A stretch of 40,483 nt of DNA from Actinomycetota bacterium (GCA_030838785.1 JAUZEY010000019.1:1-40483), one strand, 5' to 3'. Positions 306-39,698 are shown, numbered from the stretch's first letter. Translations and numbers: made by a program. Notes: generated from the letters alone by a model not told the origin.

Positions 306-353
306 GAACTGCGCGGTCGCGTGATGTCAGGCCCCCGAGCGCTCCGGCACACT
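306..353 (+). promoter_or_regulatory. Recurrent 23-nt box + CAnnCT hexamer, copy 1 (upstream of REC/HK/LuxR operon)
   Basis: GAACTGCGCGGTCGCGTGATGTC at 306-328, then CACACT at 348-353 (21 nt after GTGATG). ATG 361 lies 7 nt after the hexamer. Confidence 0.55.
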
Positions 354-360
354 GAAGGAC

Positions 361-996
361 ATGACGCAGCGGCGAAGCGATCCGCGGCGCTGTAGGACCA
401 CGTCGGCAGCGGGCGGGGCTTGCCCTCCCCTAGCCCCCGGCCCGTATCGCCGACGGGGCGGTGTCGAGGGTGTGACCGCGACCGCCCTCGGCACCGCCGA
501 ACCCGCACGACCGCTGCCCCACGAACGGGCGACCGCACAACGCTCTCTCGTAGCCACCCTCCGGGCGATTTTCCTGCTAGCCGGGATGTGTCCGGCGGGA
601 CCGGCTGCGATGCTGACGGTCATGGCCCTGCGCTGCCTTATCGTGGACGACAACGCGGGATTTCTTCGCTCGGCGCGCCTGCTCCTGCAGCGCGAGGGCG
701 TCGACGTCGTGGCTATCGCCTCCGACGGGGACGAGGCGCGGCGGCAAACCGCAGAGTTCAGACCGGACGTGGTGCTGCTCGACGTCGACCTCGGCGCCGA
801 GAGCGGGTTCGAGGTGGCGGGGCGGTTGCACGCCGATCCCGGTCCGTCACCGCCGGATCTGATCATGATCTCGATCCACGGCGAGGAGGACCTGGCCGAT
901 CTGATCGCCGCCAGTCCGGCGGTCGGCTTCATCGGCAAGCCGCACCTGTCAGCCCAGGCGATCCGGGACCTTCTCGACCGGCCTCGAAGAACCTGA
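361..996 (+). CDS. Stand-alone receiver (REC) domain response regulator
   Basis: C-terminal 125 aa are a CheY-like receiver: LIVDDN, phospho-acceptor context VVLLDVDLG, MISIH, GFIGKP. The start is uncertain. ATG 361 fits a leaderless start 7 nt after the CACACT hexamer. ATG 610 or 622 would give a bare REC domain. Confidence 0.8.
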   Translation: MTQRRSDPRRCRTTSAAGGACPPLAPGPYRRRGGVEGVTATALGTAEPARPLPHERATAQRSLVATLRAIFLLAGMCPAGPAAMLTVMALRCLIVDDNAGFLRSARLLLQREGVDVVAIASDGDEARRQTAEFRPDVVLLDVDLGAESGFEVAGRLHADPGPSPPDLIMISIHGEEDLADLIAASPAVGFIGKPHLSAQAIRDLLDRPRRT

Positions 997-1007
997 CCGC
1001 GCCTTCC

Positions 1008-2969
1008 GTGTCCAATGGCGCAGGGGCCGGGAAGGGACTGATCCGCCGGACGGTCGTCGCCGGCGGCGTGCTCGCCCTCGTCGTCGGCATCGCCTTCACG
1101 GTCGTGCTCGTGGCGATCGGCGACCTGCACCACTCGGCGGTGCTGGCCAGTGAATCGAATCGGGTCCTCTCCGCCGGGAACCATCTCGAGCGCCTGGTCA
1201 TCGACCTCGAGACCGGACTGCGGGGGTTCCTCATCACGGGCGAGGAACGCTTTCTCGCTCCCTGGGACGACGCTCAGCGTGCCTTTCCCCAACAGGCCCA
1301 GATGTTCGAGGGGCTGGCCGCCGCCCACGATGCGGGCCAGGGACGCCGGGCGCAACAGATCGCCCAGGCGGGGGTCGCCTACATCAACGAGTACTCGGTT
1401 CCGGCGGTCGAGACGGCGAGGCGGATAGCGGCGGCGGCGCCGCCGCCGACCACCTCGAGGCTCCTGGCGCCGTCACCCCGCCTGATTGCCGTGGCCGACG
1501 AGGGAAAACGGCGCGTCGACGAGCTGCGCCGGCAGTTCGACGCCTTCGCCGGGGTCGAAGACGAGCTCGCCGCGTCGCGCCAGGGGCGCTCGAGCAACGC
1601 CGCCGGACGGGCGACGGGGGCCGCCACGGCGGGCATCGCGGGGTCGGTCCTCCTCGTCGCGCTCTTCACCGACTATCTGACCCGGACGATCGTGCGCCCT
1701 GTCCGCCGGGCGGCGAGCATGGCCGGACGGCTGGCAGGTGGGGACTTCGCCGTGCGACTGCCCGAGACGGGGGCGGCGGAGATCGGCGCGCTGGAGCGCT
1801 CCTTCAACAGCATGGGCAGCTCTCTCCAGACGAGCCACATCGAGCTTCGCCAGCTCCTGGAGGAACAGGCCGCGTTGCGGCGCGTGGCCACCCTGGTGGC
1901 GCGGGCCGTCTCCCCGGCCGAGGTCTTCGAGGCGGTCGCCCGTGAGGTGGCTCGATTGCTGGATGCACCGGCCACCGGGCTGCTCCGCTACGAGACCGAC
2001 CGGACGGCCACCATCGTGGCGCTCGGGGGCGAGCTCGCCCAGGATCTGCCCATCGGCAGTCGCGTCCCGCTCGAAGGGGCCAACGCCGCGACGTCGGTCA
2101 TGCACACAGGCCGCGCCACCCGGGTCGAGAGCTATGAAGACGCGCCCGGTGTCGTCGCCGCCATGGCGCGCCGGCTCGGCCTTCGCTACGGGGTCGCGGC
2201 ACCCATTGCGGTCGAGGGCCGGCTGTGGGGAGTGATCGGTGCTTCCTGGAACCGGCCGGGGCCCCTCCCGGCCGGGATGGAGGGCCGCCTGACCCAGTTC
2301 ACCGATCTCGTCGCCACCGCCGTGGCCAACGCCGCCAACCGCGCCGAGCTCAGCGCCTCGCGGGCCCGGGTCGTCGCCGCCGCCGACGAGACCCGCCGCC
2401 GCATCGAGCGTGATCTGCACGATGGCACGCAACAACGTCTCGTTTCCATGGCGCTCGACCTGCGCAGCGCCGAGGCGGCGGTGCCGCCGGCGCTGGTCGG
2501 GCTCAAGGCGCAGCTGTCCGTGGTGGTCGAGGGCCTGACGGGGACGATGGAGGACCTGCAGGAGATCTCGCGCGGCATTCACCCGGCGATCCTCTCGAAG
2601 GGTGGTCTCGCCGCCGCGCTCCGGACGCTCGCCCGTCACGCCTCCGTTCCGGTCGCCCTCGACGTCCCGGCCGACCTGCCGCTGCCGGAGAGCGTCGAAG
2701 TCGCCGTGTACTACCTGGTATCGGAAGCACTGACGAACGTTGCCCGGCACGCCCACGCCTCCGTGATGCACGTCGGCCTGACCGTCGATGACGATGTCGT
2801 GCAGGTCTGCGTTCGCGACGATGGGGTCGGAGGAGCCCGTCCCGAGCGGGGGTCGGGTCTCATCGGGCTCCGGGACCGCATCGAGGCGCTGGGCGGAACG
2901 ATTGACGTCGCCAGTCCCGAGGGGCAGGGCACCACCCTCCGGGTCAAGATCCCGCTCGGAGCACGGTAA
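1008..2969 (+). CDS. Sensor histidine kinase, CHASE3-HAMP-GAF-HisKA_3-HATPase_c
   Basis: In-frame GTG at 1008, 12 nt after the REC stop. TM helix LALVVGIAFTVVLVAIG. CHASE3-like ERLVIDLETGLRGFLITGEERFLAPW. H-box RRRIERDLHDGTQQRL. N/G boxes EALTNVARHA, DDGVGG, GSGLIGLRDRIEALGG. Confidence 0.9.
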   Translation: MSNGAGAGKGLIRRTVVAGGVLALVVGIAFTVVLVAIGDLHHSAVLASESNRVLSAGNHLERLVIDLETGLRGFLITGEERFLAPWDDAQRAFPQQAQMFEGLAAAHDAGQGRRAQQIAQAGVAYINEYSVPAVETARRIAAAAPPPTTSRLLAPSPRLIAVADEGKRRVDELRRQFDAFAGVEDELAASRQGRSSNAAGRATGAATAGIAGSVLLVALFTDYLTRTIVRPVRRAASMAGRLAGGDFAVRLPETGAAEIGALERSFNSMGSSLQTSHIELRQLLEEQAALRRVATLVARAVSPAEVFEAVAREVARLLDAPATGLLRYETDRTATIVALGGELAQDLPIGSRVPLEGANAATSVMHTGRATRVESYEDAPGVVAAMARRLGLRYGVAAPIAVEGRLWGVIGASWNRPGPLPAGMEGRLTQFTDLVATAVANAANRAELSASRARVVAAADETRRRIERDLHDGTQQRLVSMALDLRSAEAAVPPALVGLKAQLSVVVEGLTGTMEDLQEISRGIHPAILSKGGLAAALRTLARHASVPVALDVPADLPLPESVEVAVYYLVSEALTNVARHAHASVMHVGLTVDDDVVQVCVRDDGVGGARPERGSGLIGLRDRIEALGGTIDVASPEGQGTTLRVKIPLGAR

Positions 2970-3019
2970 ACGTGACGCGCCATTCGGTTCCTGACCCGGC
3001 ACTCTGCCACGATGGGGCC

Positions 3020-3673
3020 ATGAGTATGGGGCGGGTGGTCCTGGCCGACGACGACATCCTCCTCCGGGAAGGGCTAGCGAGCCTGCTCGAGCGCTCGGGC
3101 TACGAGGTGGTGGGCCAGGCCGGTGACGGCACCCAGCTCACGGACCTGGTCCGGAAGCTCCTGCCCGACCTGGTCGTCATCGACATCCGGATGCCGCCCA
3201 CCCACTCCGTCGAAGGCCTGGACGCGGCGCGCCTGATCCGGCAGGAGTTCCCGGAAACCGGGATCCTGGTCCTCTCGGCTCACGTCGAGACGCATCAGGC
3301 CATGGAGCTGCTGGCCGGGGGAAGCCGGATCGGCTACCTGCTCAAGAGCCGGGTCACCGACGTCGAGGAGTTCGTCGACACCCTGGGGCGGATCCTGAAG
3401 GGCGCTTCGATCGTCGATCCGGGTCTGGTCCACGAGCTGGTCAGTGCCCACCGGGTCGACGATCCGCTGGCCCGGCTGTCGGCCCGGGAGCGCGAGGTGC
3501 TGGCGCAGATGGCCGAGGGCCGCTCCAATGCCGGGATCGCCCGCCGGCTCTTCGTCAGCGAAGGGACCGTCGAGAAACACGTACGGAGCATCCTGGCCAA
3601 GCTCGATCTCGAGGAGACGGACGAGGACCACCGCCGTGTCCTCGCCGTCATCGCCTTCCTCGACGCCCACTGA
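3020..3673 (+). CDS. NarL/FixJ (LuxR)-family response regulator
   Basis: ATG 3020 gives MSMGRVVLADDDILLREG. Receiver has DLVVIDIRMPP. C-terminal LuxR HTH LSAREREVLAQMAEGRSNAGIARRLFVSEGTVEKHVRSILAKL. Confidence 0.9.
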   Translation: MSMGRVVLADDDILLREGLASLLERSGYEVVGQAGDGTQLTDLVRKLLPDLVVIDIRMPPTHSVEGLDAARLIRQEFPETGILVLSAHVETHQAMELLAGGSRIGYLLKSRVTDVEEFVDTLGRILKGASIVDPGLVHELVSAHRVDDPLARLSAREREVLAQMAEGRSNAGIARRLFVSEGTVEKHVRSILAKLDLEETDEDHRRVLAVIAFLDAH

Positions 3674-3684
3674 GCCCGTCCGCC

Positions 3685-3748
3685 GAACTGCGCGGTCGCC
3701 GAACTGCGCGGTCGCGTGGTGCGCGGTCGGGGCCGGTTCCCTCAGACT
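3685..3748 (+). promoter_or_regulatory. Recurrent box, copy 2 (5' 16 nt tandemly duplicated) + CAGACT hexamer
   Basis: GAACTGCGCGGTCGCC at 3685-3700, immediately followed by GAACTGCGCGGTCGCGTGGTGCG at 3701-3723. CAGACT at 3743-3748. ATG 3757 lies 8 nt after the hexamer. Confidence 0.5.
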
Positions 3749-3756
3749 GACGCCTC

Positions 3757-4125
3757 ATGGAACGACGACTGGTTCTCGTGCACGAGCGACGCGAGCGCAT
3801 CATCGCCCCCTTGGACCTGGTGTGGGACGAGATCGATTCGCTCGACGGGGCCCGCGCCGCGGCCAGGTTCGAGCTCACCTGGGGTCCGCTCAAGTGGCCC
3901 CTCGACGTGGACGTCACCATGACGCTGACGGCGGTTGGCACGTCGGAGACCCGGCTCGACTGTCGGGGCCACCTGGAGACCCGGCACCGACTCGCCGCCC
4001 CGCTGCGACGCCTGTGCCACGACGTCGTCGAACACCACGTGCGGACTATGGTCCAACGGGTGAAGACCCGGGCCGAGCAGCGCCGGCTAGCGGTGGAATG
4101 TCTGTTGCGCTCTGCTCCCGGCTGA
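3757..4125 (+). CDS. Small hypothetical protein, SRPBCC-like (weak)
   Basis: 122-aa ORF with high GC3. The N-terminus [17 protein letters not shown] resembles the SRPBCC / polyketide-cyclase fold. Box copy 2 lies directly upstream. The last 80 nt overlap the convergent CoA-transferase gene. Confidence 0.45.
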
Positions 4126-6040: not shown

Positions 6041-6213
6041 TGCGCCACCGTAGGTAAAGGCGTCCATGTAGGGGCCTGCTCTCAAGCGCGGTCTGGTCCT
6101 GTCCTCTGGCCAGGGCCGTTGGGCCGGTACCCGTGGTCAGATTGGACGGCCGCCAGCACCAAATCGGATGCAGTCGATTCGATAGTCGCAGATGAAAGGG
6201 GGGGCGGATGAGT

Positions 6214-7044: not shown

Positions 7045-7104
7045 GACTGAGTCCTCCTCGGTTGGTTGGTCACACCAGTGAACGGCGAGGAGGCGTCAGT
7101 TCGG

Positions 7105-7189
7105 GCTGGCCTCTGGTACTGACGCGCCCGTCTGTTCGGTACCCGGCCAGCGGCGCTGGCCTCTCGTACCGGCGAGCCCGTCTGTTCGG
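7105..7189. repeat. Two copies of a 35-nt direct repeat with 50-bp period in a divergent promoter region
   Basis: GCTGGCCTCTGGTACTGACGCGCCCGTCTGTTCGG (7105-7139) and GCTGGCCTCTCGTACCGGCGAGCCCGTCTGTTCGG (7155-7189). Confidence 0.7.
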
Positions 7190-7264
7190 CCAATGCTCGT
7201 GTTCTCCAGGGCGGCTTAGCGTGGTTCACGGCTGGGAGCCACCACATCAACGACTGGAGATCCA

Positions 7265-8143: not shown

Positions 8144-8156
8144 GAGCCTCGGACCT

Positions 8157-9284: not shown

Positions 9285-9385
9285 AGCTCGCCTTCCTCTC
9301 CATTACTCAGGGGGGCGTGATGGTCGGGTTCACTTATCTCTTGATAAGCCCAGGACCACGGTAAGTGGCAAGGGGCTCTGGTTCC

Positions 9386-11906: not shown

Positions 11907-11911
11907 CGGCG

Positions 11912-11958
11912 CAACTACCAACTCGCGTGATGCGCGTCGGGACGACGCCGATCAGGCT
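11912..11958 (+). promoter_or_regulatory. Recurrent box, copy 3 + CAGGCT hexamer (gvp operon promoter candidate)
   Basis: CAACTACCAACTCGCGTGATGCG at 11912-11934 and CAGGCT at 11953-11958. gvpA ATG at 12004 with SD GAAGGAGG. Confidence 0.55.
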
Positions 11959-20211: not shown

Positions 20212-21609
20212 TCATGCGCCTCCATTGCCGGAGATGGGGGAGAGCCCCGCGCCGTGGGCGACGGCGATCGCTTCGGTGCGGGAGCCGACCTGGAGCTTGG
20301 CCAGGATGTTGGAGACGTGGAACTTGACGGTGCGCTCGCTGATGAAGAGCCGGGCGGCGATGTCGCGGTTGCGCAGCCCGGCGATCATGAGTTCGAGCAC
20401 CTCGCGCTCCCGGTCCCGTAGCTCGGCCAGGCGCCTCGTGGCCGGAGTCTCCGGTGCGGGAGCGAGGTCGTGCAGGGGCAGGACACAGCTGAGCGTGGTG
20501 CCCCACTGCGGGTTGACGTCGAGGTCGACCCGGCCCCGGAGCTCGGCCGCCAAGCGGCGGATGTCGGACAGGCCGCGGTCGAGGCCCGGGGCGGCGTGGT
20601 CGGCACCGACGGCGTTGTCGGCGATGGTGATGAGCAACGCCTGGTCGGTGAGTCGCCACCGGAGGCGGACCTTGTCGGCTCCGGGGCGTTGGATGGCGTT
20701 GAGGGCTGCGCCGCGGGTGATGAGGCGGGCGGCGTGGGCCACGGCGTACGCCACCTGGGCCGACTCGTCGGCGTCGAGATCGGCGACAAGTTGGATCTGG
20801 GCCGCGCCGGCGATGCTGCTGACCTCTTTTTCGATGTCGGTGAAGGCGGCGCCGAGGGCGGCGCGGCCGGAGGCGGCGGTGGTGTCGGAGTCGGCCTGGA
20901 GGTCGAGCAGGGCACGGGAGGCCAGGTCGATGGCTTTGGCCACCCCGGGGGGCGTCGCCTGCGATCCGCCTGCGCTGGCGCTGCGCAACGACAGCAGCAG
21001 CGATGAAAGGGTGGAGGCGTGTCGCCCCCGCAGCTCGAGTCGGATGCGGTCGCGTTCCTGGCTCATGGCCCTGGAGAAGGCCAGGGTTCCCGGCGGCGGG
21101 TCATGGTCGATCGCCCGGACACGGGCGGCGGCGGCCATGGCCACCCGGAGCGCAGCGCGTTCCTGGTCCGGCGTGATGCTCATCCGTAGGTGGTCGCCGA
21201 CGATCAGGGCGGCGATGAACCCGGATGAGCGGGCCACCCAGCCGACCACCCGCAACCCGCCCAGCATGTCGGGCAGGGCCAGCCGGGCCGCCCCCCCGTC
21301 CGCCGCTGGGGGGTCGGCACTGACCATCGGGGTCCAGTCGATGCCGAGCAACCCCTGACGCGCCGCCCGCGGCGCTGCGATCTGAACGGGAAACGTCGGT
21401 GACCCCGGGGTGACCAGCACCAGCGCCGTGTGGGGCAGAACCGGAAGCAGGGCCTTACGGGCCCGCTCTGCCACTGCATCGGCGGGCGCCGTCACCATCT
21501 CGGCCAATGCCTCTTCGGGCAGGCCTACGCCAACCGGAGCGCCGTGGTCGCCGCTGACGGGCGGCCAGTCCCGATATGGCGGTTCCGATGCGATGTAGGC
21601 GTCGCTCAC
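20212..21609 (-). CDS. One-component regulator: GAF-like N-terminus + degenerate HisKA_3/HATPase_c + LuxR HTH (no receiver)
   Basis: C-terminus LRDREREVLELMIAGLRNRDIAARLFISERTVKFHVSNILAKL. Kinase-like core: H-box ERDRIRLELRGRHASTL (His replaced by Arg), N-box GAALNAIQ, DNAVG, and DRGLSDIRRL in place of GSGLxGLR. GTG 21609 behind GGAG; the track start at 21711 lies inside the promoter box. Confidence 0.78.
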   Translation of the reverse strand: MSDAYIASEPPYRDWPPVSGDHGAPVGVGLPEEALAEMVTAPADAVAERARKALLPVLPHTALVLVTPGSPTFPVQIAAPRAARQGLLGIDWTPMVSADPPAADGGAARLALPDMLGGLRVVGWVARSSGFIAALIVGDHLRMSITPDQERAALRVAMAAAARVRAIDHDPPPGTLAFSRAMSQERDRIRLELRGRHASTLSSLLLSLRSASAGGSQATPPGVAKAIDLASRALLDLQADSDTTAASGRAALGAAFTDIEKEVSSIAGAAQIQLVADLDADESAQVAYAVAHAARLITRGAALNAIQRPGADKVRLRWRLTDQALLITIADNAVGADHAAPGLDRGLSDIRRLAAELRGRVDLDVNPQWGTTLSCVLPLHDLAPAPETPATRRLAELRDREREVLELMIAGLRNRDIAARLFISERTVKFHVSNILAKLQVGSRTEAIAVAHGAGLSPISGNGGA

Positions 21610-21656
21610 CGTAACTCCGATTGCTGGTGCCGCCCGGCAGTGATGTGCAGAGGCAT
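21606..21656 (-). CDS. Possible 16-codon upstream ORF coupled to the regulator gene
   Basis: AGGAGG 6 nt before ATG 21656. Encodes MPLHITAGRHQQSELR. Its TGA overlaps the GTG 21609 start (GTGA). Confidence 0.3.
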   Translation of the reverse strand: MPLHITAGRHQQSELR

Positions 21657-21689: not shown

Positions 21690-21737
21690 AGAGTGCCGGT
21701 GGCGAGACCACGTCGACATCACGCGAGTGTGTAGTCC
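21690..21737 (-). promoter_or_regulatory. Recurrent box, copy 5 + CACTCT hexamer (minus strand)
   Basis: Minus strand GGACTACACACTCGCGTGATGTC at 21737-21715 and CACTCT at 21695-21690. Confidence 0.55.
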
Positions 21738-21813: not shown

Positions 21814-21861
21814 ATACTGCGCGGTTGGGGGATGTCGGGCCACCACGCGCTCTGCGACCCT
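21814..21861 (+). promoter_or_regulatory. Recurrent box, copy 6 (more degenerate) + GACCCT hexamer
   Basis: ATACTGCGCGGTTGGGGGATGTC at 21814-21836; its ACTGCGCGGT is identical to copy 1. GACCCT at 21856-21861. ATG 21869 lies 7 nt later. Confidence 0.45.
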
Positions 21862-23394: not shown

Positions 23395-23441
23395 CGACTA
23401 CTCGATCGCGTGATGTCGGCGCCTGTCCTTATGGACATGCT
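23395..23441 (+). promoter_or_regulatory. Recurrent box, copy 7 + CATGCT hexamer
   Basis: CGACTACTCGATCGCGTGATGTC at 23395-23417 and CATGCT at 23436-23441. Confidence 0.55.
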
Positions 23442-23474: not shown

Positions 23475-23672
23475 ATGACGACCGCTGACCCTACCGGCAC
23501 CATTTCCGGCGACGGAGGGGCCGCAAGCCGCTACGGGCCGCCCCTGCTGCATCTGCGGGGGACGGAATACGGGCTCCGGATCCATGGGTTACGGATGGCT
23601 GCCGATGGGCGGCATGGCGCCGGTGCGGCCGGACAGGCCGACGCCGCCCTGGGCGGGTGCGACCATGGGTAA
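23475..23672 (+). CDS. Possible 65-aa ORF between the promoter box and the SDR gene
   Basis: GGGAGG 5 nt before ATG 23475. The end overlaps SDR ATG 23665 by 8 nt. Gly/Ala-rich, no recognisable family, moderate GC3. Confidence 0.3.
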   Translation: MTTADPTGTISGDGGAASRYGPPLLHLRGTEYGLRIHGLRMAADGRHGAGAAGQADAALGGCDHG

Positions 23673-24402
23673 CCTCGCCTTCGATTTCGACGGGCGGACG
23701 GTCATCGTCACCGGCGCGGCCCGGGGTATCGGCCTGGAGCTGGCCCGCCATTTCCAGCGGGCGGGGGCCGACGTGGTCATGGTGGACTTCGACGGGGACG
23801 TGCTGGCGAAAGCGGCGGCGGAGCTCGGCGTCCGGGGCCTGCAGGCCGACGTCAGTTCGACGGCGGACGTGGAGGCCGTGGTGACCGCCGTCGTCGAGGA
23901 GACCGGGCGCATCGACGTCCTGGTCAACAACGCCGGCATCCTGCGGGACAACGTGCTGTGGAAGCTGACCGACGACGACTGGGAGCGGGTGCTGGCGGTC
24001 CACGCCGGCGGGACGTTCCGCTTCACCCGGGCCTGTGTGCCGCACTTCCGGGCCCAGGAGTACGGCCGGGTCGTGAACGTCACCTCGTATACCGGGCTCC
24101 GGGGCAATTCCGGGCAGGCGAACTATGCGACCGCCAAGGCCGGGATCATCGGCTTCACCAAGACGGCGGCTAAGGAACTGGCCCGCTTCGGCGTGACGGT
24201 CAACGCCATCTCGCCCAACGCCGAGACCCGGATGGTCGAGTCCATCCCTGCGCCGAAGCGGGCGGAGCTGACCGCCGCCATTCCCCTCGGCCGTTTTGCC
24301 GCCCCCCGCGAGATGGCCGCCGCGGTGGCCTTCCTCGCCTCCGAAGAAGCCGGCTACGTGACCGGCGTGGTGCTGCCGGTCGACGGTGGCATGTCGATGT
24401 GA
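23665..24402 (+). CDS. Short-chain dehydrogenase/reductase (FabG-like 3-oxoacyl reductase)
   Basis: TGAARGIG, NNAG, catalytic S...YATAKAG, C-terminal PVDGG. Confidence 0.9.
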   Translation: MGNLAFDFDGRTVIVTGAARGIGLELARHFQRAGADVVMVDFDGDVLAKAAAELGVRGLQADVSSTADVEAVVTAVVEETGRIDVLVNNAGILRDNVLWKLTDDDWERVLAVHAGGTFRFTRACVPHFRAQEYGRVVNVTSYTGLRGNSGQANYATAKAGIIGFTKTAAKELARFGVTVNAISPNAETRMVESIPAPKRAELTAAIPLGRFAAPREMAAAVAFLASEEAGYVTGVVLPVDGGMSM

Positions 24403-24417: not shown

Positions 24418-24858
24418 ATGACCGCCGTTGAAGCAACCTGTGCAGAGTGTGGCGTCGTCTGGCTGTCGCCGTGGGACATCGTGGTACGGGTGTGCGTCGA
24501 CCTCCAGTCGAGCGCCTCCTACACCTTCCACTGCCCGGAGTGCGGGCTGCTGGCGGCCAAGCCGGCCAACGACCACATGGTCGACTTCCTCACCTCGATC
24601 GGGGCCTCGCTGGAGGCGTGGTACCTCCCCGAGGAGCTCCGCGAGCCCCGCCCCGACGGCGCCCCGATCAACCACGACGACCTGCTCGACTTCCACCTCC
24701 TGCTCCAGGGCAAGGACTGGTTCGAGCGTCTCGAAGGACTGGTCGCGGGCGGCGACGACCTCAGGGGGCGACCGGAATCTCAACGAGGAGGGTGGTCCCA
24801 GTTCCCGCGGGACTGGCGATCTCGATCGTTCCGCCGAGGGCCTCGATACGGTCTCTGA
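24418..24858 (+). CDS. Hypothetical zinc-ribbon protein (CxxC...CxxC)
   Basis: SD GGGAG before the ATG. CAECG ... CPECG. The last ~98 nt overlap the convergent kinase gene and encode an Arg-rich tail. Confidence 0.5.
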   Translation: MTAVEATCAECGVVWLSPWDIVVRVCVDLQSSASYTFHCPECGLLAAKPANDHMVDFLTSIGASLEAWYLPEELREPRPDGAPINHDDLLDFHLLLQGKDWFERLEGLVAGGDDLRGRPESQRGGWSQFPRDWRSRSFRRGPRYGL

Positions 24859-26749
24859 GGCCGATCAGCCCCGAGCCTTCCCCGGGCACCGCGCCTCCGA
24901 CTCCGTCGTCGTCGACCGACAGACGGAGCACCGCACCCTCCGCCGCGAGGCGCACACGGACCAGAGACGCCCGGGCGTGCTTGGCCACGTTGGTGAGGGC
25001 TTCCGACACGACGTAGTACACCGCCACCTGGACGCTGTCGGGCAGCCGCCGGTCGCCGGACACGTCCAGTTGGACCGGGACGGACGAGCGGCGGGCCAGG
25101 ACCTTGAGAGCGGCCTCCATCCCGCCTTGCGAGAGGATCGCCGGGTGGATGCCCCGGGAGATCTCCTGCAGGTTGTCGACCGCCGCCGCCAGCCCGTCCG
25201 CCGTACTGGCCAACTGCGCTTTGACCTCGACCATCTCGGGCGGCACCGAGGCGTCGGCGGCGCGCAGGTCGAGGGCCAGGGCGACCAGACGTTGCTGCGT
25301 CCCGTCATGGAGATCCCGCTCGATGCGGCGGCGGCTCTCGTCGGCGGCGGCCACGACCCGGGCCCGGGAGGCGGCGAGCTCGACGCGGCTGTCAGCGTTG
25401 GCGATGGCGGTGGCCGCGAGCTCCGTGAACTGGGCGAGCCGCCCCTCGGCGCCCGCCGGCAGTGGCCCCGGGCCGAGCCAGCCGGCGGTCATCACACCCC
25501 AGAGGCGGCCCTGGACGACGATGGGCCCGGCGACGGCGGAGCGAAGGCCAGGTTGGCGGGCCAGGGCGGCGGGGCCGAGGGCACGCTGGACGTCGTCGAG
25601 CCGCGCCGCACGGCCGGTGCGCAACACCGCGGCGACAGCGCCGTTCTCGTCGAGTTCCAGGCGTTCACCGACGAAGCGCCGGCCGAGCTCAGGGAGTTCA
25701 CCCCGCCCCGCCAGGATGGTCGTCGTCCCGTCGGGCTCACAGCGGAGCAGCCTCGTGAGGGGTGCCTCCAGCAGCCAGCCCACCTCACCGCACACCGCGT
25801 CGAAGACCTCGGCCGGCGGGACGGCCCGCGCCACCAGGGTCGCCACCCGCCGCAGGGCGGCCTGCTCCTCGACCAGGAGGCAGAGCTCGTTGTGGCTGGT
25901 CTCCAGCGAGGCGCCCATCGTGTTGAAGGCCCGCTCCAGGACGCCGATCTCGTCCGCCCCGGTCTCGGGGAGGCGAACGGTGAGGTCACCGCCCGCCAGC
26001 CGGCCGGCCATGGCCGCCGCCCGGCGGACGGGCCGGGCGATCGTCCGGGTCAGGTAACCGGTGAAGAGCACGACGAGACCGATCGATCCCGCCACACCGA
26101 CCGTGGTGGCGAAGGTGGCCCGGCCGGCGGCGGAGCGGGCGTGCTGCTGGCGCGTCGAGGCGAGCCCGTCCTCGGACGCCCCGAAGCCGTCGAACTGGGC
26201 GCGGAGCGCGTCGACCCGCCGTTTCCCCTCCTCGGTCACGGCCACGGTCAGGACCGACGCCCGGTCGCGTCGCGCCTGGTCCACGGTCGGTTCGGAGTAC
26301 TCCCGGATGTACGCCCGGGCGGCGTCGGTGATCCCCTGCGCCCGGTGGCACTGCACGGCGTTCCCCCCGGCGGTGAGCCGCTCCAGAACTCCGGCCTGCG
26401 GGGGGAAGCTCCGGCGGGCGGCGTCCCACGGTTCGAGGAAGCGCTCGTCGCCGGTGATGACGAAGCCGCGCTGGCCCGTCTCCAGGTCGATGACCAGCCG
26501 CTCGAGCCGGTTGGCGGCGGCCAGCACCGATTCGGAGTTCCGGGCCCGGACGCCCGACCGGCGTAACTCCGCGATCGTCACGAGGACGACCGTGAACGCC
26601 GTGCCGACGAGGAGGGCGAGCAGGCCGCCGGCGATCACGGTCCGCCGGGTCAGCCCAACCCTCGAGTGCTCCTTGATGGTTCGTCTCTCCCTTAGTACCC
26701 CCGCGTCGCCTGCACCTTGGCAAACCCGACGGGGGCCACGCACGGGCAT
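24761..26749 (-). CDS. Sensor histidine kinase, CHASE3-HAMP-GAF-HisKA_3-HATPase_c (paralog of 1008..2969, no adjacent response regulator)
   Basis: Same domain order and near-identical blocks: ERLVIDLETGQRGFVITGDERFLEPW, RRRIERDLHDGTQQRL, EALTNVAKHA, GSGLIGLRDRIEALGGTIE. Confidence 0.9.
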   Translation of the reverse strand: MPVRGPRRVCQGAGDAGVLRERRTIKEHSRVGLTRRTVIAGGLLALLVGTAFTVVLVTIAELRRSGVRARNSESVLAAANRLERLVIDLETGQRGFVITGDERFLEPWDAARRSFPPQAGVLERLTAGGNAVQCHRAQGITDAARAYIREYSEPTVDQARRDRASVLTVAVTEEGKRRVDALRAQFDGFGASEDGLASTRQQHARSAAGRATFATTVGVAGSIGLVVLFTGYLTRTIARPVRRAAAMAGRLAGGDLTVRLPETGADEIGVLERAFNTMGASLETSHNELCLLVEEQAALRRVATLVARAVPPAEVFDAVCGEVGWLLEAPLTRLLRCEPDGTTTILAGRGELPELGRRFVGERLELDENGAVAAVLRTGRAARLDDVQRALGPAALARQPGLRSAVAGPIVVQGRLWGVMTAGWLGPGPLPAGAEGRLAQFTELAATAIANADSRVELAASRARVVAAADESRRRIERDLHDGTQQRLVALALDLRAADASVPPEMVEVKAQLASTADGLAAAVDNLQEISRGIHPAILSQGGMEAALKVLARRSSVPVQLDVSGDRRLPDSVQVAVYYVVSEALTNVAKHARASLVRVRLAAEGAVLRLSVDDDGVGGAVPGEGSGLIGLRDRIEALGGTIEIASPAGTGTTLLVEIPVAP

Positions 26750-26875
26750 TCCAGGGCCAACTCCGGGCCGGATCTGGTCTTCCCAGCACGGTGTCCCCTC
26801 CGGCCCGGCCGGCTCACAATGCGCCGGAAGCGTGAACCCGCGTTTTCTTGACTGCCACAGGGGATCCGGAGGCCG

Positions 26876-27724
26876 ATGGACGGACAGCGCGCACGAGTGT
26901 TACTCCGTGCTGAACGATTCCGGTTGCAGGAACGACTGAAGGCCCTGGCCGGCGAAGAGGCGACGATTGCGACCCGTATCCGCCAGCAGCTGGCCTCCTT
27001 CGACCGGGCCCAGCACCGGCTGGAGGCGGGGGCGGAGCTCACCGCGGAGGAGTGCCGGCTCGACACCCCGGTGATCTTCTGGGAATGTGAGGGCGTCTCC
27101 ACGAGGAGCGAGGGTCACATGACGGAGTCCATAGCCCTTGGCGTCAACGGGCTCTCCATTCCGCCGGGTACCCACATCTGCGCCTTCTTCCGGGGGATTC
27201 CGGAACGAGACGAGATCATGGTCCCCTTTCTCATGGAGGGCCTCCGCGCCGGAGACAAGTGCACGTGCATCATCGATGACGCAGTGGACGGGGTCCGCAC
27301 CGCCCTCGGGGCGGCACTGGCCCCGTGCGCCGCCGGCGGCCAGCTCCACATCCAGCCCTCGAAGGACGCCTACCTCCGCCGGGGCACGTTCTCCACGCAG
27401 GGCATGCTCGACTTCTGGGAGGAGTCGGTGGGAGCGGCGCTGGGCGAGCAGGGTTTCCCGTTCTCCCGGTCGGTGGGGGATGCGACCTTCACGCTGCGGG
27501 AACTGCCTGACCTCTACGACTTCATGACCTACGAGGCGGAGCTGAACCGGTTCCTGCCCCGCTACCCCCAGGTGATCATGTGCCTCTACGACCTCGACCG
27601 GTTCGGGGGACAGGTCCTGGTCGAAATCCTGAAGACGCACCCGAAGGTGCTCATGGGCTCCACCGTCCTCGACAACCTCTATTACCTCGAGCCCGACGAG
27701 TTCCTGGCCAGCCGGGGACGGTGA
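26876..27724 (+). CDS. MEDS-domain protein (possible sensory/partner-switch component)
   Basis: GTHICAFFRGIPERDEIMVPFLMEGLRAGDKCTCII...VIMCLYDLDRF... is MEDS-like. ATG 26876 behind GGAGG adds an 81-aa coiled-coil-like N-terminus. Alternative ATG 27119 behind GAGGAG. Confidence 0.75.
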   Translation: MDGQRARVLLRAERFRLQERLKALAGEEATIATRIRQQLASFDRAQHRLEAGAELTAEECRLDTPVIFWECEGVSTRSEGHMTESIALGVNGLSIPPGTHICAFFRGIPERDEIMVPFLMEGLRAGDKCTCIIDDAVDGVRTALGAALAPCAAGGQLHIQPSKDAYLRRGTFSTQGMLDFWEESVGAALGEQGFPFSRSVGDATFTLRELPDLYDFMTYEAELNRFLPRYPQVIMCLYDLDRFGGQVLVEILKTHPKVLMGSTVLDNLYYLEPDEFLASRGR

Positions 27725-29382
27725 TCGAGGCCAGCGCCTCCCCGGGCAACATCACCGTCCGGGACCTGCTCTCGTCGCTGCGCGCCCTGCAGGTTCTGTC
27801 GATGGTGATGACGGACAGCGCCGGCGAGGACGAGATCCTCGATCTGGCCGTCTCCTCCGTCCCTTCGCTCAGTCGCTGCCGGGCGGAAGCCGTCTGGCTC
27901 GACGGAGCGTGGCGGTCGGTTCACTCCCTCCGGGGGCGGGTCGGGGCCCGGGCCGACCTCGAGGGCCAGATCGGCCTCCTCGGCCGGGCCGGTGGACCGC
28001 TCCGCTCGGCGGGCCTGGGCTGGATCTGGGCCTTCCCCCTCTCGAGCCGGGGTGGGGCGTCGGGCCACCTGGTGGTCGGCGCTCCGGAGCCGCCGCCCGA
28101 CCACGAGCGGTCGGTGATCCAGGCGCTGGCCCAGCAGACCGGGGTGGCGCTCGCCAATGCCCGCCTGCTGGCCCGGGAGCGGGCCACGGCATCGGAGCTG
28201 CGCACCACGTTGGAGGCCTTCCGTCACAGCATGGACATCCACGACCGGCTCACCCGGGTGGCGGCGGCCGGCGAGGGGTTGGAGGGGATCGTCCGCGCCG
28301 TCCACCAGCTCACCGGCCACCCGGTGGCCATCGAGGACCGGGCCGGGATCCTGCAGGCCTGGGCCGGACCGGACCGGCCCGACCCCTATCCGAGGGACGC
28401 TCCCGCCCGCCGGGAGCGGATGCTCCGCCAGGCGCTGGCCGCCGGGCGGCCGGTTCGGGACGGCGGCCGCCTCCTGGCCCTGGCCCTGTCGCGGGAGGAC
28501 ATCTTCGGCGTCGTCGCCCTCATCGACCCCGGGGGCCTGGCCGGCGAGGCCGAACAGATCGCGCTGGAGCACGGTGCCACGGTCCTGGCCATGGAACTGG
28601 CGCGGCTCCGGAGCGTGGCCGAGACCGAGTTGCGCCTGGGGCGCGATCTCCTCGACGAGCTGCTGGCCGGCCACGACACGCAGGGTGTCCTGAAGCGGGC
28701 CGGGGCGCTCGGCTACGACCTCGACCAGGTCCACCGGGTCGTCGTGGTCGAGGGCCACAGCCGGACCCGCGACGAGGAGTACTTCTTCCATGCCGTGCGG
28801 CGCTGCGCCCGGGACCTGGGCATCGGTTCGCTGCTCGGAGTCCGGGCGGGGGCGGTCGTGATCCTGGCCGACGCCGCCGGGGACTGGGAGCGGCTCCGTT
28901 CCGCCGTCCTCTCCGACGTCGGCCGGGGCAGCTGCCGGCTGGGCGTCGGGGGATGTTACGACTCTATCGGCGACCTGCCCCGTTCCTACCGGGAGGCGCA
29001 GATGGCCCTCAGGACGCAGAAGGCCGCCCGGACGGAGGACCGGGCGACGGTCTTCGACGAGCTCGGTGTCTACCGGGTCCTGGCCGGCGTGGAAGACCCT
29101 GGCACGGTGGAGCGCTACGTCCGTGACTGGCTCGGACCCCTGATCGACTACGACGCCCGCAAGGACTCGGAACTCGTCGTCACCCTCTCCGGCTACCTGG
29201 AATGCGGTGGCAGCTACGACGGCGCGGCCAAGGCGCTGTCGGTGCACCGCAGCACCCTGCGCTACCGGTTGGAGCGCATCCGGGAGGTCCTGGGCCACGA
29301 CCTCGGTGACCCCGACACCCGCTTCAACCTTCAGCTCGCCACCCGGGCCTGGGCCACCCTCCAGGCGATGGGCGAGCCGTAA
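27721..29382 (+). CDS. GAF-containing PucR/CdaR-family transcriptional regulator
   Basis: GTGA overlap with the MEDS stop. C-terminal HTH GSYDGAAKALSVHRSTLRYRLERIREVLG. Confidence 0.85.
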   Translation: MIEASASPGNITVRDLLSSLRALQVLSMVMTDSAGEDEILDLAVSSVPSLSRCRAEAVWLDGAWRSVHSLRGRVGARADLEGQIGLLGRAGGPLRSAGLGWIWAFPLSSRGGASGHLVVGAPEPPPDHERSVIQALAQQTGVALANARLLARERATASELRTTLEAFRHSMDIHDRLTRVAAAGEGLEGIVRAVHQLTGHPVAIEDRAGILQAWAGPDRPDPYPRDAPARRERMLRQALAAGRPVRDGGRLLALALSREDIFGVVALIDPGGLAGEAEQIALEHGATVLAMELARLRSVAETELRLGRDLLDELLAGHDTQGVLKRAGALGYDLDQVHRVVVVEGHSRTRDEEYFFHAVRRCARDLGIGSLLGVRAGAVVILADAAGDWERLRSAVLSDVGRGSCRLGVGGCYDSIGDLPRSYREAQMALRTQKAARTEDRATVFDELGVYRVLAGVEDPGTVERYVRDWLGPLIDYDARKDSELVVTLSGYLECGGSYDGAAKALSVHRSTLRYRLERIREVLGHDLGDPDTRFNLQLATRAWATLQAMGEP

Positions 29383-29397: not shown

Positions 29398-29462
29398 CTG
29401 ACTACCCGATCGCCTGACTACTCGATCGCGTGGTGTGTCCCCGGCGTCGAGGTCTCATGCTT
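29398..29462 (+). promoter_or_regulatory. Recurrent box, copy 8 (5' 16 nt tandemly duplicated) + CATGCT hexamer
   Basis: CTGACTACCCGATCGC at 29398-29413, then CTGACTACTCGATCGCGTGGTGTG ending at 29438. CATGCT at 29457-29462. Confidence 0.5.
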
Positions 29463-29515
29463 TCCGAGAAACCGTGGTGCTTCCGACCGAAGCACCTTCA
29501 CAATCGAGGAGAGTC

Positions 29516-29662
29516 ATGCGAAAGCTTCTTGGCGCACTGGCCGTCGGAGTGCTGGCCATCACGGCGTCCGCACCGGCGGCCCACGCCGCTCCGGCGGCGG
29601 GGGTGGCCCACCACCGCTGTCACCACGGCATCGTGAGCGAAGTCCTCGGCTACCTGTTGTAG
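29516..29662 (+). CDS. 48-aa secreted His-rich peptide
   Basis: GAGGAG before ATG 29516. Signal peptide MRKLLGALAVGVLAITASAPAAHA. Mature part APAAGVAHHRCHHGIVSEVLGYLL. Confidence 0.5.
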   Translation: MRKLLGALAVGVLAITASAPAAHAAPAAGVAHHRCHHGIVSEVLGYLL

Positions 29663-29682
29663 CTCGTGAGAGCACGCGAACC

Positions 29683-29717
29683 CGCCGCTCCGCAGTCATC
29701 TCGGCTGCGGGGCGGCG
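29683..29717. terminator. 13-bp stem hairpin between convergent genes
   Basis: CGCCGCTCCGCAG-(9 nt)-CTGCGGGGCGGCG, with one G-U pair. Confidence 0.5.
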
Positions 29718-29739
29718 AGGAACGTCGAAGGGAATGGGA

Positions 29740-30150: not shown

Positions 30151-30205
30151 TGGAGCTCCTCTCGTGGATCTGTCGTGCGTTGCTCGTGTCGAGTCGACGG
30201 TCAGG

Positions 30206-30871: not shown

Positions 30872-30895
30872 GCTCCACCTCCGGTCTCTACCTGC

Positions 30896-30942
30896 AGCCT
30901 GGACCGGGGTGAAGGTGGGTACATCACGCGACCGTGTAGTTC
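30896..30942 (-). promoter_or_regulatory. Recurrent box, copy 9 + CAGGCT hexamer (minus strand)
   Basis: Minus strand GAACTACACGGTCGCGTGATGTA at 30942-30920 and CAGGCT at 30901-30896. Confidence 0.55.
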
Positions 30943-30961
30943 TCGAGGGCTCGTCGACCCG

Positions 30962-32581: not shown

Positions 32582-32594
32582 CCGAATTCGCCTC

Positions 32595-33941: not shown

Positions 33942-33948
33942 TGAGGTC

Positions 33949-37369: not shown

Positions 37370-37380
37370 CGTTGCTCCGA

Positions 37381-38679
37381 TCAGTATTCGTTGGCGATGA
37401 AGAGGTCCTGGGCCGGGAACTTGGTGATCACGTGCGCGCCTCGCTCGGTGATCACCACCTCCTCCTCGATCCGGGCGGCGGAGAAACCGTCCGAGGCCGG
37501 GCAGTACGTCTCCAGCGCGAAGACCATGCCGGGCTGGATCTCCACCGGAGCGCACAGGCTGTTGAGCCGGCTGATGATCGGTCGCTCGTGCAGGCCGAGG
37601 CCGAGCCCGTGGCCGAACTGGAGCCCGAAGGCGGCCATCTCATCGGCGAAACCGAACTCGGTGGCGGCGGGCCACAGCCGGGCCACGGCGTCGGTGCCCA
37701 CTCCGGGGCCGACCGCTTCGATGGCGGCGTCCATCCACTGGCGGGCCCTGGCATAGGCGTCCCGCTGCGGCCCCGTCGCGCTGCCAACGCTGAACGTCCG
37801 GTAGTAGCAGGTGCGGTATCCGTTGTAGGACTGGATGATGTCGAAGAAGGCCTGATCGCCGGGCCGGATGATCCGGTCGGAGAAGTTGTGCGGATGGGGG
37901 TTGCACCGTTCGCCCGACACGGCGTTGACGGCCTCGACCTGATCGGAACCCATCTCGTAGAGCCGTTTGTTGGCCAGCGCCACGATCTCGTTCTCCCGCA
38001 CGCCGGGCTTGAGGGCCTCCACGATGTCCTGGTAGACGCCGTCCACCATGGCGGCGGCCTGGGTGAGCAGGGTGATCTCGTCGACGGACTTGATCTGGCG
38101 GGCGTCCAGCATCAACTGCTGCGCGTCGAGCACCTTCAGGCCCTGGCGCTGCATCTCGAACAGGAAGGGCGGCTCGACGATGTCGACACCCACCGGGAGG
38201 TCGGCGAGCCCGGCGTCGCTCAGCAGGCCCTTGAGCTCGCGCACCGCCGACTCCATCAGCCCGACGGCCGGCGCGATCGCGCCCCGGAGGCCCAGCATCC
38301 CGGCTCGGCAGTTCTCCGGGGCCAGCCACGGAGAATAGAGCTGATGGTGCTTGGCCGCCGAGCCGAAGTCCCACAGCACCGGCTCACCGCCGCGGGGCAG
38401 GAGGGCGTAGCGGGTCATCTTGTCGCCGAGCGCCCCGCCGATCCACGTCTGCGTCACATAGCGGATGTTGTAGAAGTCGAACAGCAGGAACGCGCCGCAC
38501 TCGCTCGACTCCAGCGCCGCCCTGGCCCGGCCCAGCCGGTAGTCGCGCAGCCGGCCGAAGTCGACCCGCTGCTCGAAATCCACGCCGCCGTGGCCCGGGG
38601 CGGGCAGGGGAGCGGACCCTGCGCCCGTCCTGGTCTGCGGGCTCGTCCTGGTCTCCACGCTCGGCGTCACCGGCGTCAC
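37381..38679 (-). CDS. M24-family (creatinase / Xaa-Pro peptidase / DddP-like) hydrolase
   Basis: Creatinase-like N-domain plus a pita-bread C-domain: FFDIIQSYNGYRTCYYRTF, FGHGLGLGLHERP, PGMVFALETY, ARIEEEVVIT. Confidence 0.85.
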   Translation of the reverse strand: MTPVTPSVETRTSPQTRTGAGSAPLPAPGHGGVDFEQRVDFGRLRDYRLGRARAALESSECGAFLLFDFYNIRYVTQTWIGGALGDKMTRYALLPRGGEPVLWDFGSAAKHHQLYSPWLAPENCRAGMLGLRGAIAPAVGLMESAVRELKGLLSDAGLADLPVGVDIVEPPFLFEMQRQGLKVLDAQQLMLDARQIKSVDEITLLTQAAAMVDGVYQDIVEALKPGVRENEIVALANKRLYEMGSDQVEAVNAVSGERCNPHPHNFSDRIIRPGDQAFFDIIQSYNGYRTCYYRTFSVGSATGPQRDAYARARQWMDAAIEAVGPGVGTDAVARLWPAATEFGFADEMAAFGLQFGHGLGLGLHERPIISRLNSLCAPVEIQPGMVFALETYCPASDGFSAARIEEEVVITERGAHVITKFPAQDLFIANEY

Positions 38680-39617
38680 CTTCCGTTCAGGCCGTCGTCG
38701 ACCTCGACGTTCTCCGGCCGCAGCTCCAGCCCGGCCCGGCGGGCCTGCTCCAGGATCAGCTCGGCGAAGTCGTTGTCCCGATGTCCGGCCCCGACGGCGG
38801 CGGCGACGATCTGCGCCGTCGTCGAGGCCACCGGCATAGGCGCCTCCAGCTCCCGGGCGGCGGCCAGACCGAGGTCGAAGTCCTTGCGCAGCAACGGCAT
38901 GGTGAACGTCGGCGCGAAATCCAGGTTGACCAGGGCCGGGGTCTTGTACCGGGAGAACTCCGAGCCCAGCACCGAGTTGTTCAGGAACTCCAGGAAGGCG
39001 GCGCGGCTCGCGCCACCCTTCTCGGCCAGCACAGTGATCTCCGCCAGCGACTGGGTCACCACGCCCAGGAACACGTTGTGGCAGATCTTCACGAGGCGGG
39101 CGACTTCGCCCTCGCCGACATAGGTGACCCCGCGGCCGAGCACGCCCAGCAGCGACGCCACGTCGTCGAACACCGGTCGGGGACCGGACACCGCCAGGGT
39201 CAGCTTGCCGGCGCCGACCACCTTCGGGTTGCCGCTGACCGGTGCGGCCAGGAATTCCGTGCCGACCTTGGCTGCGTCGGCCCGAACCTGCGCCGACGCC
39301 TCGGCCGACACGGTGGAGGAGTCCACGAGTACGCCGGGCCCGGTGTCGGCGGTGAGCAGGCCGTCCTCACCCGAGGTCACGGCCAGCAGGTCGGCCGAAG
39401 CGGACACCATGCTGAACACCACGTCCCGGTCGGCCAGTTCGACCGGGCGGTCCACCACCGTCGCGCCGTGCTCGACCAGCGTCTCGGCCTTGGCCCTCGT
39501 CCGGTTGTAGACGGCGACGTCGAAGCCGGCCTCCAGCAGCCGGGTGGCGAGGGCGGCGCCCATCCGTCCCGCACCGATCCAACCGATACGGGTGTCGTCA
39601 CCCACGTTGATCGTCAT
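38676..39617 (-). CDS. 3-hydroxyisobutyrate dehydrogenase-family beta-hydroxyacid dehydrogenase
   Basis: ATG 39617 behind GAGGAGG. IGWIGAGRMGAALATRLLEAGFDVAVYNRT, APVSGNP. Confidence 0.88.
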   Translation of the reverse strand: MTINVGDDTRIGWIGAGRMGAALATRLLEAGFDVAVYNRTRAKAETLVEHGATVVDRPVELADRDVVFSMVSASADLLAVTSGEDGLLTADTGPGVLVDSSTVSAEASAQVRADAAKVGTEFLAAPVSGNPKVVGAGKLTLAVSGPRPVFDDVASLLGVLGRGVTYVGEGEVARLVKICHNVFLGVVTQSLAEITVLAEKGGASRAAFLEFLNNSVLGSEFSRYKTPALVNLDFAPTFTMPLLRKDFDLGLAAARELEAPMPVASTTAQIVAAAVGAGHRDNDFAELILEQARRAGLELRPENVEVDDGLNGR

Positions 39618-39650
39618 CGCCCTCGGCCTCCTCATGGTGGTGGTGGTGTC

Positions 39651-39698
39651 AGGGTGAAGGAACCGAGGTTGGACGGACATCACGCGATCGCGCTGTTG
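39651..39698 (-). promoter_or_regulatory. Recurrent box, copy 10 + CACCCT hexamer (minus strand; catabolic operon promoter candidate)
   Basis: Minus strand CAACAGCGCGATCGCGTGATGTC at 39698-39676 and CACCCT at 39656-39651. Confidence 0.55.

Follow-up and report, generated by a model that had tools for sequence, protein, structure and literature searches.

The contig JAUZEY010000019.1 of an Actinomycetota bacterium (assembly GCA_030838785.1), analyzed from nucleotide 1 to 40,483 and referred to here as the window, has a G+C content of 70%, and its nearest relatives are uncultured soil Actinomycetota. It includes a two-component operon coding for a receiver (REC), a histidine kinase (HK), and a response regulator (RR); a gas-vesicle operon; a gene for a protein with an HK-like part and a LuxR-type DNA-binding domain (HK-like-LuxR), followed by LysR and ABC transporter genes; a DUF3040/DAC-like gene pair; a short-chain dehydrogenase (SDR) gene; a catabolic operon; and genes for proteins of 68, 48, 221, and 122 amino acids (aa). 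In front of each of these ten operons there is a copy of a 21-base element with the consensus RACTRCnCGRTCGCGTGATGT, here called the box, with a hexamer, usually CAnnCT, at a fixed distance behind it. We describe this composite in the window and in its relatives, and discuss which protein may read it.

Searching the window with the consensus and up to three mismatches recovers seven copies, compared with none in 100 shuffled sequences. The ten boxes score 21.4–33.4 bits with a position matrix, values that are partly circular in that the matrix was made from these same copies, and the runner-up anywhere in the 40 kb, on either strand, scores 13.3 bits and is itself a partial tandem copy of the box; all other positions are below 12 bits. 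The boxes are present where a first-pass annotation of this DNA had put them, with the copy it gave as 29416-29438 better aligned as 29415-29437; two weaker look-alikes in the same annotation (9302-9322 and 6168-6187) score less than 8 bits and are unsupported as sites. The hexamer starts 18 or 19 nt past the 23-mer (20 or 21 nt past GTGATG) in all ten copies, with the sequences and distances reported in that annotation, and reads CAnnCT in nine and GACCCT in one. All ten boxes are intergenic and oriented in the same direction as the next gene (Table 1). The earlier assignment of downstream genes holds in that every box faces a gene, but the first open reading frames (ORFs) after the boxes at 21737 (minus strand) and 23395 (plus strand) are upstream ORFs of 16 and 65 aa, respectively.

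Table 1. Composite promoters, partial box copies, motif 2, and candidate regulator genes in the window, with orthologous promoter sites in related loci (L numbers).
Feature	Coordinates	Strand	Score (bits)	Downstream genes and remarks	Orthologous sites
Composite promoter 1	box 306-328; hexamer CACACT 348-353	+	32.5	REC-HK-RR operon; a second promoter intervenes before the true REC start at 622	L041, in BP_132
Composite promoter 2	box 3701-3723 (GTGGTG variant); hexamer CAGACT 3743-3748	+	27.1	ATG 3757, 8 nt past the hexamer; 122-aa product, no Pfam family	L121, ATG likewise 8 nt past CAGACT
Composite promoter 3	box 11912-11934; hexamer CAGGCT 11953-11958	+	26.4	gas-vesicle operon (Shine-Dalgarno and ATG 12004)	L100 7019(-)
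Composite promoter 4	box 15334-15312; hexamer CACACT 15293-15288	-	33.4	68-aa ORF 15249-15043	L100 3524(+)
Composite promoter 5	box 21737-21715; hexamer CACTCT 21695-21690	-	30.8	16-aa upstream ORF (21656-21606), HK-like-LuxR gene, LysR and ABC transporter genes	L045 5129(+); L123 2009(+)
Composite promoter 6	box 21814-21836 (diverged: TTGGGGGATG; ..GGTTGGGGGATGTC); hexamer GACCCT 21856-21861	+	21.4	leaderless-type ATG 21869 (DUF3040), then a gene with a below-cutoff DAC-domain match	
Composite promoter 7	box 23395-23417; hexamer CATGCT 23436-23441	+	33.3	65-aa upstream ORF 23475-23672, then SDR gene 23584-24402	
Composite promoter 8	box 29415-29437 (GTGGTG variant); hexamer CATGCT 29456-29461	+	29.9	48-aa peptide gene 29516-29662 (apparent signal sequence, HHRCHH motif)	L078 3520(-)
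Composite promoter 9	box 30942-30920; hexamer CAGGCT 30901-30896	-	33.4	gene for 221-aa protein 30871-30206 (hydrophobic segments by eye), then a repeat-protein gene	L078 2028(+); L128 659(+)
Composite promoter 10	box 39698-39676; hexamer CACCCT 39656-39651	-	30.1	catabolic operon: 3-hydroxyisobutyrate-dehydrogenase-like, M24 peptidase, E1 dehydrogenase, aldehyde dehydrogenase, two amidohydrolases	
16-nt tandem partial copy of the box 5' part (GAACTGCGCGGTCGCC)	3685-3700	+			
16-nt tandem partial copy of the box 5' part (TGACTACCCGATCGCC)	29399-29414	+	13.3		
Motif 2: palindrome TTTCCTGCTAGCCGGGATG (TTTCCWGSTAGCSGGRATG)	570-588; then 20 nt, GATGCT 609-614, 7 nt, ATG 622	+		REC-HK-RR operon	
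REC	622-996	+			
CHASE3-HAMP-GAF histidine kinase	ends 2969	+			
NarL-family response regulator	3020-3673	+			
HK-like-LuxR, 465 aa	20212-21609	-		best candidate box-binding protein	

The two 16-nt tandem duplications are independent and occur exactly at the two window boxes in which GTGGTG replaces GTGATG, and they are missing from the orthologous promoters in L121 (counterpart of 3685-3700) and L078 (counterpart of 29399-29414). No match to a known RNA family was found in the window with Rfam.

The distribution of the box was determined by scanning the core alone, with the hexamer left out, over 596 Gb of reference genomes, which gives at least 116 loci. Among the matches listed, [C/G]AnnnT is found at the right distance in 14 of 16 hits in metagenome-assembled genomes (MAGs) of Acidimicrobiia/Actinomycetota versus 7 of 100 elsewhere (Fisher p = 3e-11); the approximately 100 core hits in unrelated phyla are mostly coding or chance matches by inspection. 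Scanning metagenomes with the full composite yields 12 contigs, including some from soil, and a matrix re-scan of related loci adds copies that the exact pattern missed. Pooling the window, the listed genome matches, the metagenome contigs, and the matrix re-scan gives 41 unique sites, 40 of which have the hexamer, at offset 18 in 25 and offset 19 in 15. All 14 sites in L129, L137, L138, and L141, for which genes were called independently, are intergenic and co-oriented with the next gene; together with the window this is true of all 24 sites having gene models, which bears out the earlier view of the box as a directional, promoter-linked element and not a dispersed repeat. Where boxes occur as divergent pairs they are 4, 10, 15, 33, or 76 nt apart, and each therefore appears to serve its own side.

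The sites are also conserved at orthologous promoters. Synteny with the window is seen in contigs of the MAG BP_132, where the boxes are found at the corresponding promoters, and in the SDR promoter (footprint of six loci) and the DUF3040 promoter the box and hexamer are kept whereas the spacer and upstream DNA have diverged, among lineages with proteins that are about 60–75% identical. The deviant DUF3040 box (..GGTTGGGGGATGTC) is itself kept in six loci (the window, L045, L123, L120, L141, and L137), and looks like the outcome of tuned affinity and not of decay. The hexamer and an ATG about 6–7 nt beyond it are kept in the first five of these; the L137 site retains box and hexamer, with no ATG at that place.

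The composite has a well-defined architecture. Box positions 2–22 contain about 33 bits (position counts from the 40 sites with a hexamer), the 15 bases upstream of the box and the spacer contain no more than about 0.3 bit per position, and in the hexamer A2 and T6 are present in all 40 sites and C5 in 36. The box is an imperfect 18-bp dyad, as had been suggested from the CGATCG at its center, with the best axis between positions 11 and 12 (CGR/TCG; ACTRCnCGR/TCGCGTGAT, with a slash at the axis) and 6–7 of 9 arm pairs complementary. The distance from the axis to the first hexamer base is 30.5 or 31.5 nt in 40 of the 41 sites. Box positions 19–24 (ATGTCn) fall on a -35 hexamer separated from CAnnCT by a spacer of 17 or 18 nt, and the first-pass statement that the -35 is not conserved is incorrect, in that ATGT (positions 19–22) coincides with -35 to -32 and is conserved. 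G21 (40 of 40 sites) and T22 (31 of 40) are conserved outside the dyad and on its promoter side only, which fits contact with RNA polymerase.

In Actinobacteria it is common for an mRNA to be leaderless, with its 5' end at the A of the start codon and about 7 nt past the -10. Two ATGs in the window, at 3757 and 21869, are 7–8 nt past the hexamer, and in four further DUF3040 loci the ATG is about 6–7 nt past it and the protein N-terminus is conserved; the remaining box promoters have a Shine-Dalgarno sequence further downstream. Because an ATG is at leaderless distance from the hexamer in several orthologue groups, we infer that transcription starts about there. CAnnCT would then act like a -10, as previously proposed, with start codons about 6–8 nt beyond it, and the box axis would be at approximately -42.5 to -44.5, depending on the start chosen, so that the box would span the class-II activator position to which the first-pass annotation had assigned it.

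We think it rather likely, from the sequence patterns, that each copy is an activator-dependent promoter composed of three parts in fixed register, with a member of the LuxR family the most likely activator. A dimeric helix-turn-helix activator centered about 42.5–44.5 bp before the transcription start would read the 18-bp dyad, the promoter-proximal end of the box would supply a crippled -35 (ATGTCn, cf. TTGACA), and a crippled -10 (CAnnCT, cf. TAnnnT) would follow past the 17/18-bp spacer; transcription would start about 7 nt past the -10, in several cases on the start codon, giving a leaderless mRNA. As the -35 and -10 both lack the first consensus base, RNA polymerase would need the bound activator, and we thus predict activation rather than repression. 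The putative activator site is in fixed register over the -35, and the sub-consensus -35 and -10 are separated by an ordinary spacer, as in class-II promoters; the dyad is also within the 18–20 bp of LuxR/NarL-family operators. The mechanism is probably that of an ordinary class-II activator system.

The protein that would bind the box is predicted on the basis of correlation only, and the best candidate activator is HK-like-LuxR (20212-21609). It has an untyped N-terminal domain, a degenerate HisKA_3-like region, a DevS/DosT-like ATPase domain, and a C-terminal LuxR (GerE) helix-turn-helix. In each of the seven box-carrying loci examined (the window, L045, L123, L129, L137, L138, where the box is weak, and L141) a box precedes its gene or operon, either with the gene alone behind a 16-aa upstream ORF or with a CoA-transferase gene preceding it, and a LuxR-type regulator is thus linked to its own putative site in seven of seven loci. 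All box lineages have an identical recognition helix (SERTVKFHVSNILAKL), and in the Thermoleophilia homologues, beside which there is no box in L139, L140, L142, and L143, two helix residues are consistently changed (E to V, and A to Q/H). HK-like-LuxR as the activator would be positively autoregulated.

Several other features of this family and its surroundings were observed. HK-like-LuxR relatives of about 460–490 aa are found in Acidimicrobiia and Thermoleophilia, and the aligned phospho-acceptor histidine position is R, S, or Q in most of them, which suggests a pseudokinase fused to a LuxR helix-turn-helix. The 16-aa upstream ORF (21606-21656, minus strand; MPLHITAGRHQQSELR) has a strong Shine-Dalgarno sequence; its TGA shares bases with the GTG at which the HK-like-LuxR gene begins (GTGA), an arrangement suggestive of translational coupling, and the ORF is found in BP_132 as well. 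The box-less loci L139, L140, L142, and L143 have a similar neighborhood that includes gas-vesicle genes, SDR, hydrolases, and PucR and LuxR regulators, and contain other palindromes in the same register as the box, followed by ATG-N20/21-SAnnnT; the word GGACAGTG-N22-ACGATGG recurs in Thermoleophilia-type loci.

Some observations do not sit easily with an activator-dependent promoter read by HK-like-LuxR. The first base of the hexamer is C in 32 sites, G in 7, A in 1, and T in none, and this absence of T is odd for a housekeeping sigma factor and could reflect a different holoenzyme. The dyad is imperfect, and its C4/A19 and T5/G18 pairs are conserved yet asymmetric. The orthologous sites L129 10581-10603(-) and L141 3521-3543(-) are strong boxes (28–29.5 bits) with no recognizable hexamer, and box 306 has another promoter about 260 nt downstream of it, which means that a copy cannot always be equated with the promoter of the gene it faces. 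The HK-like-LuxR helix is only two residues away from those of homologues at box-less loci, and there are many other LuxR-, PucR-, and LysR-type regulators nearby.

The other promoter downstream of box 306 contains a different palindrome, motif 2, which was found during a test for core-only promoters. The same arrangement is present before REC-HK operons in L041 (BP_132), L129/L130, L132, L133, and L135/L136, with carriers that include the Acidimicrobiia MAG SMAG_U5006 and four contigs with no box within 20 kb, and it occurs in all six lineages examined that have this response regulator. Motif 2 matches the box in the distance from axis to hexamer and in having ATG at about -35, and two different regulators appear to share one architecture. 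Initiation at ATG 622 gives a product beginning MALRCLIVDD, a typical receiver N-terminus. The first-pass annotation had read 361-621 as the REC N-terminus, but the codon-position G+C of this region is 0.75/0.71/0.72, compared with 0.76/0.46/0.84 for REC, and substitutions relative to BP_132 are distributed 13/10/13 over codon positions, compared with 6/5/18; as it lacks a coding signature, ATG 361, 7 nt past the first hexamer, is not a real start. Box 306 would thus be an additional promoter, placed about 260 nt ahead of the one proper to the operon.

The response regulator of this operon is 76–93% identical across lineages, with an invariant DNA-binding helix, and there is no box within 20 kb of its close homologues in L132–L136; it is probable that this NarL-type regulator (3020-3673) reads motif 2 and not the box. 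It is not a DosR orthologue, matching DevR (3c3w) with 71.6 bits, below VraR and no better than other NarL-family regulators such as NarL, and it is below every NCBIfam cut-off. The top NCBIfam name, MadR/MadS, belongs to an Enterococcus system on which the literature gave nothing relevant, and was rejected. In L132 (10682-13880) and L133 (10632-13906) the motif-2 operon codes for REC and a CHASE3/HAMP/GAF kinase and ends in a group-3 (SigB/F-like) sigma gene; the response regulator gene is not at the operon end but is adjoining and convergent. In the window, region 24761-29382 also contains a second CHASE3-HAMP-GAF kinase gene, a paralogue of the first with 62% identity by tblastn to the latter's counterpart in BP_132; it adjoins genes for a PucR-type regulator and a MEDS-domain protein, and no box precedes any of the three.

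These findings bear on other interpretations of the box. The core, with G-R-ATG at about -35, 20/21 nt, and SAnnST, could be the signature of a dedicated alternative sigma factor, and hence a new promoter class in which a helper protein on the 5' part of the box is optional; we regard this as unlikely. The hexamer never begins with T in 40 sites, yet a canonical promoter (TTGACA-N17-TACATT-N7-ATG) is present in a box-carrying MAG (L040), which suggests that the housekeeping consensus is normal there, so that the C at -12 is either a deliberate weakening or a sign of another sigma; beyond single canonical examples of this kind, inference of the housekeeping -10 from putative leaderless genes was too noisy. 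Palindromes that are unrelated to one another also precede this core (the box, motif 2, and three or more in Thermoleophilia loci), and a group-3 sigma gene ends the L132/L133 motif-2 operon, but this sigma has no homologue in 229 kb of box-lineage DNA, nor is any linked cognate sigma gene found there. Conservation extends over 21 contiguous positions plus the hexamer, in place of the two short blocks of alternative-sigma promoters, and about 33 bits over 21 contiguous bases is far beyond what sigma region 4 reads. Core-only matches show no clear excess, with 31 non-box matches against 16.7 +/- 3.9 expected for the whole pattern, or about 23 when motif-2 sites and weak boxes are subtracted, and the spacer is an ordinary 17/18 nt once ATGTCn is the -35. 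A broader form of this idea is that the box and motif 2 both belong to a lineage-wide grammar of soil Acidimicrobiia/Thermoleophilia (regulator-specific palindrome, ATG at -35, 20/21 nt, SAnnST) with a core read by a dedicated non-housekeeping sigma, which we also consider improbable; if true, stress/dormancy genes including gas vesicles would be gated by pairs of sigma and activator, and the master activator would be unusual in uniting a degenerate histidine kinase and a LuxR domain in one protein.

It is distinctly unlikely that the box is the operator of a repressor that blocks the -35 region. The box does overlap the -35 position, and the L132/L133 regulator gene has a motif-2-like palindrome 8–9 nt upstream of a -10-like hexamer, which is a repressor-like position; however, a repressor would not need a register to the hexamer as rigid as that of 40 of the 41 sites, which varies by no more than 1 nt, and core elements that are both consistently sub-consensus are expected of promoters that need help, not of those that are silenced.

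We consider it very unlikely that the box is the site of the NarL-family regulator 3020-3673, which would then autoregulate its own operon from the copy at 306. A box does precede the REC-HK-RR operon in both the window and BP_132 (L041), and the regulator has a LuxR-type helix-turn-helix. Its operon, however, has a proximal leaderless promoter with a different palindrome, motif 2, in all six lineages; the DNA-binding helix is identical in all motif-2 lineages, including loci with 77–81% identical regulators and no box within 20 kb. L129 and L141 do have boxes, but not upstream of the adjacent response-regulator gene (its orthology is presumed in L141), and it is unlikely that one helix specifies both ACnCGA/TCGnGT and CCnGCT/AGCnGG. 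Autoregulation of the REC/HK/LuxR operon through the box, as raised in the first-pass annotation, is thus unsupported, and its suggestion of a LuxR-type reader stands for the class of protein, which is the most plausible one, but not for the regulator of that operon, which tracks motif 2 instead.

Ten copies within 40 kb and the 16-nt tandem partial duplications at two of them might point to a dispersed (REP- or MITE-like) repeat or a by-product of recent duplication with no promoter function, but this is exceedingly improbable given 24 of 24 intergenic, co-oriented sites, no conservation beyond the 23-mer and hexamer, sites kept in orthologous promoters of lineages with proteins only about 60% identical, and no Rfam match. 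Inspection by eye also rejected an ECF reading (GAAC as -35 and CGT as -10), ruled out by its spacing of 10 nt; and CRP, LexA, LysR (T-N11-A), SARP, and MerR readings, which fail on half-site or spacer conservation. A methylation site at the central GATC is rejected on the position counts, as box position 11 varies (A/G/C).

The activator-dependent promoter proposed here is reminiscent of previously described systems. The lux and tra boxes are 18–20 bp dyads that are centered at about -42.5, overlap a poor -35, and are bound by a dimeric LuxR-family protein; almost all of their positions are conserved, and the regulator genes are often under their own box. The box resembles them in dyad size, conservation of almost all positions, a predicted center at about -42.5, a poor -35, and a candidate regulator under its own box, but matches the lux box by eye at only about 8 of 20 positions, mainly the central GATCG, and differs in having a clearly asymmetric dyad, a CAnnCT -10, and an HK-like sensor rather than an acyl-homoserine-lactone domain. 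DevR/DosR of Mycobacterium tuberculosis and OsdR of Streptomyces recognize the 20-bp Dev box (TTSGGGACTWWAGTCCCSAA), of which the promoter-proximal copy overlaps the -35. Here too there is a putative actinobacterial NarL/LuxR-family activator and a multi-operon, stress/dormancy-type island with GAF-domain kinases, and the ATPase part of the candidate regulator resembles DevS/DosT; in contrast, the box has no similarity to the Dev box and no GGGACT/AGTCCC half-sites (by eye, against the position table), and the candidate binder is a one-protein fusion of kinase-like and helix-turn-helix parts. Judged from both regulator and box consensus, the set is no member of the DosR regulon.

CRP/FNR class-II sites are centered at -41.5 and have a non-conserved center. 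They are similar to the box in that the activator site covers or replaces the -35 in a fixed helical register with the -10, but involve another protein family and half-site, and the CGRTCG center of the box is conserved. SigB general-stress regulons are known in Bacillus and in Streptomyces, where gas-vesicle genes have been reported among them. Gas vesicles, a Dps-like protein, SDR, small hydrophilic proteins, and hydrolases make up a comparable target mix, but the box is not GTTT-N14-17-GGGTAT, its information is in 21 bp and not in two short blocks, and no sigma gene was found in the island. Literature searches with the box core string and with gas-vesicle, LuxR, and actinobacterial terms gave no description of the motif and nothing relevant, in agreement with the first-pass failure to match it to any known sigma or regulator consensus.

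Targets of the box in distant genomes include genes for an alpha/beta hydrolase, an SDH-type serine protease, a ferritin/Dps-like protein, asparagine synthase, a LysR regulator, and DUF3467, and our impression from the annotations, taken with those of the window, is of a heterogeneous stress or dormancy set. We note three features of individual leaders and targets. The conserved 65-aa upstream ORF at 23475-23672 (core PLLHLRGTEYGLRIHGL) has its own Shine-Dalgarno sequence and overlaps the SDR ATG (23584) in another frame; it occurs in L045, L123, and L124 but not in L129 or L120. The leader of the 48-aa peptide gene has a perfect 8-bp stem (GGTGCTTC and GAAGCACC, with a 5-nt loop) at 29476-29496, also present in L078. 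The hexamer-less promoters of L129 and L141 precede a hypothetical gene of 276–289 aa and have GCGCACATA where SAnnST is expected.

To our knowledge, nothing is known of transcription control in these uncultured soil Actinomycetota. The box appears to be a real and previously undescribed regulon signal, with a mechanism that is unsurprising unless a dedicated sigma is involved. With about 40 bits in total it is a sharply defined cis-element that can serve to delimit a whole regulon in MAGs, and it links gas-vesicle genes to stress-type functions. It also nominates regulators that lend themselves to testing: for the box the kinase-like LuxR fusion, and for its sister palindrome a NarL-type regulator that is very conserved. 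The lack of T at the first -10 position provides a handle on the question of a special holoenzyme in these lineages. The value of the box is as a map for annotating an uncultured lineage, rather than as a new principle.

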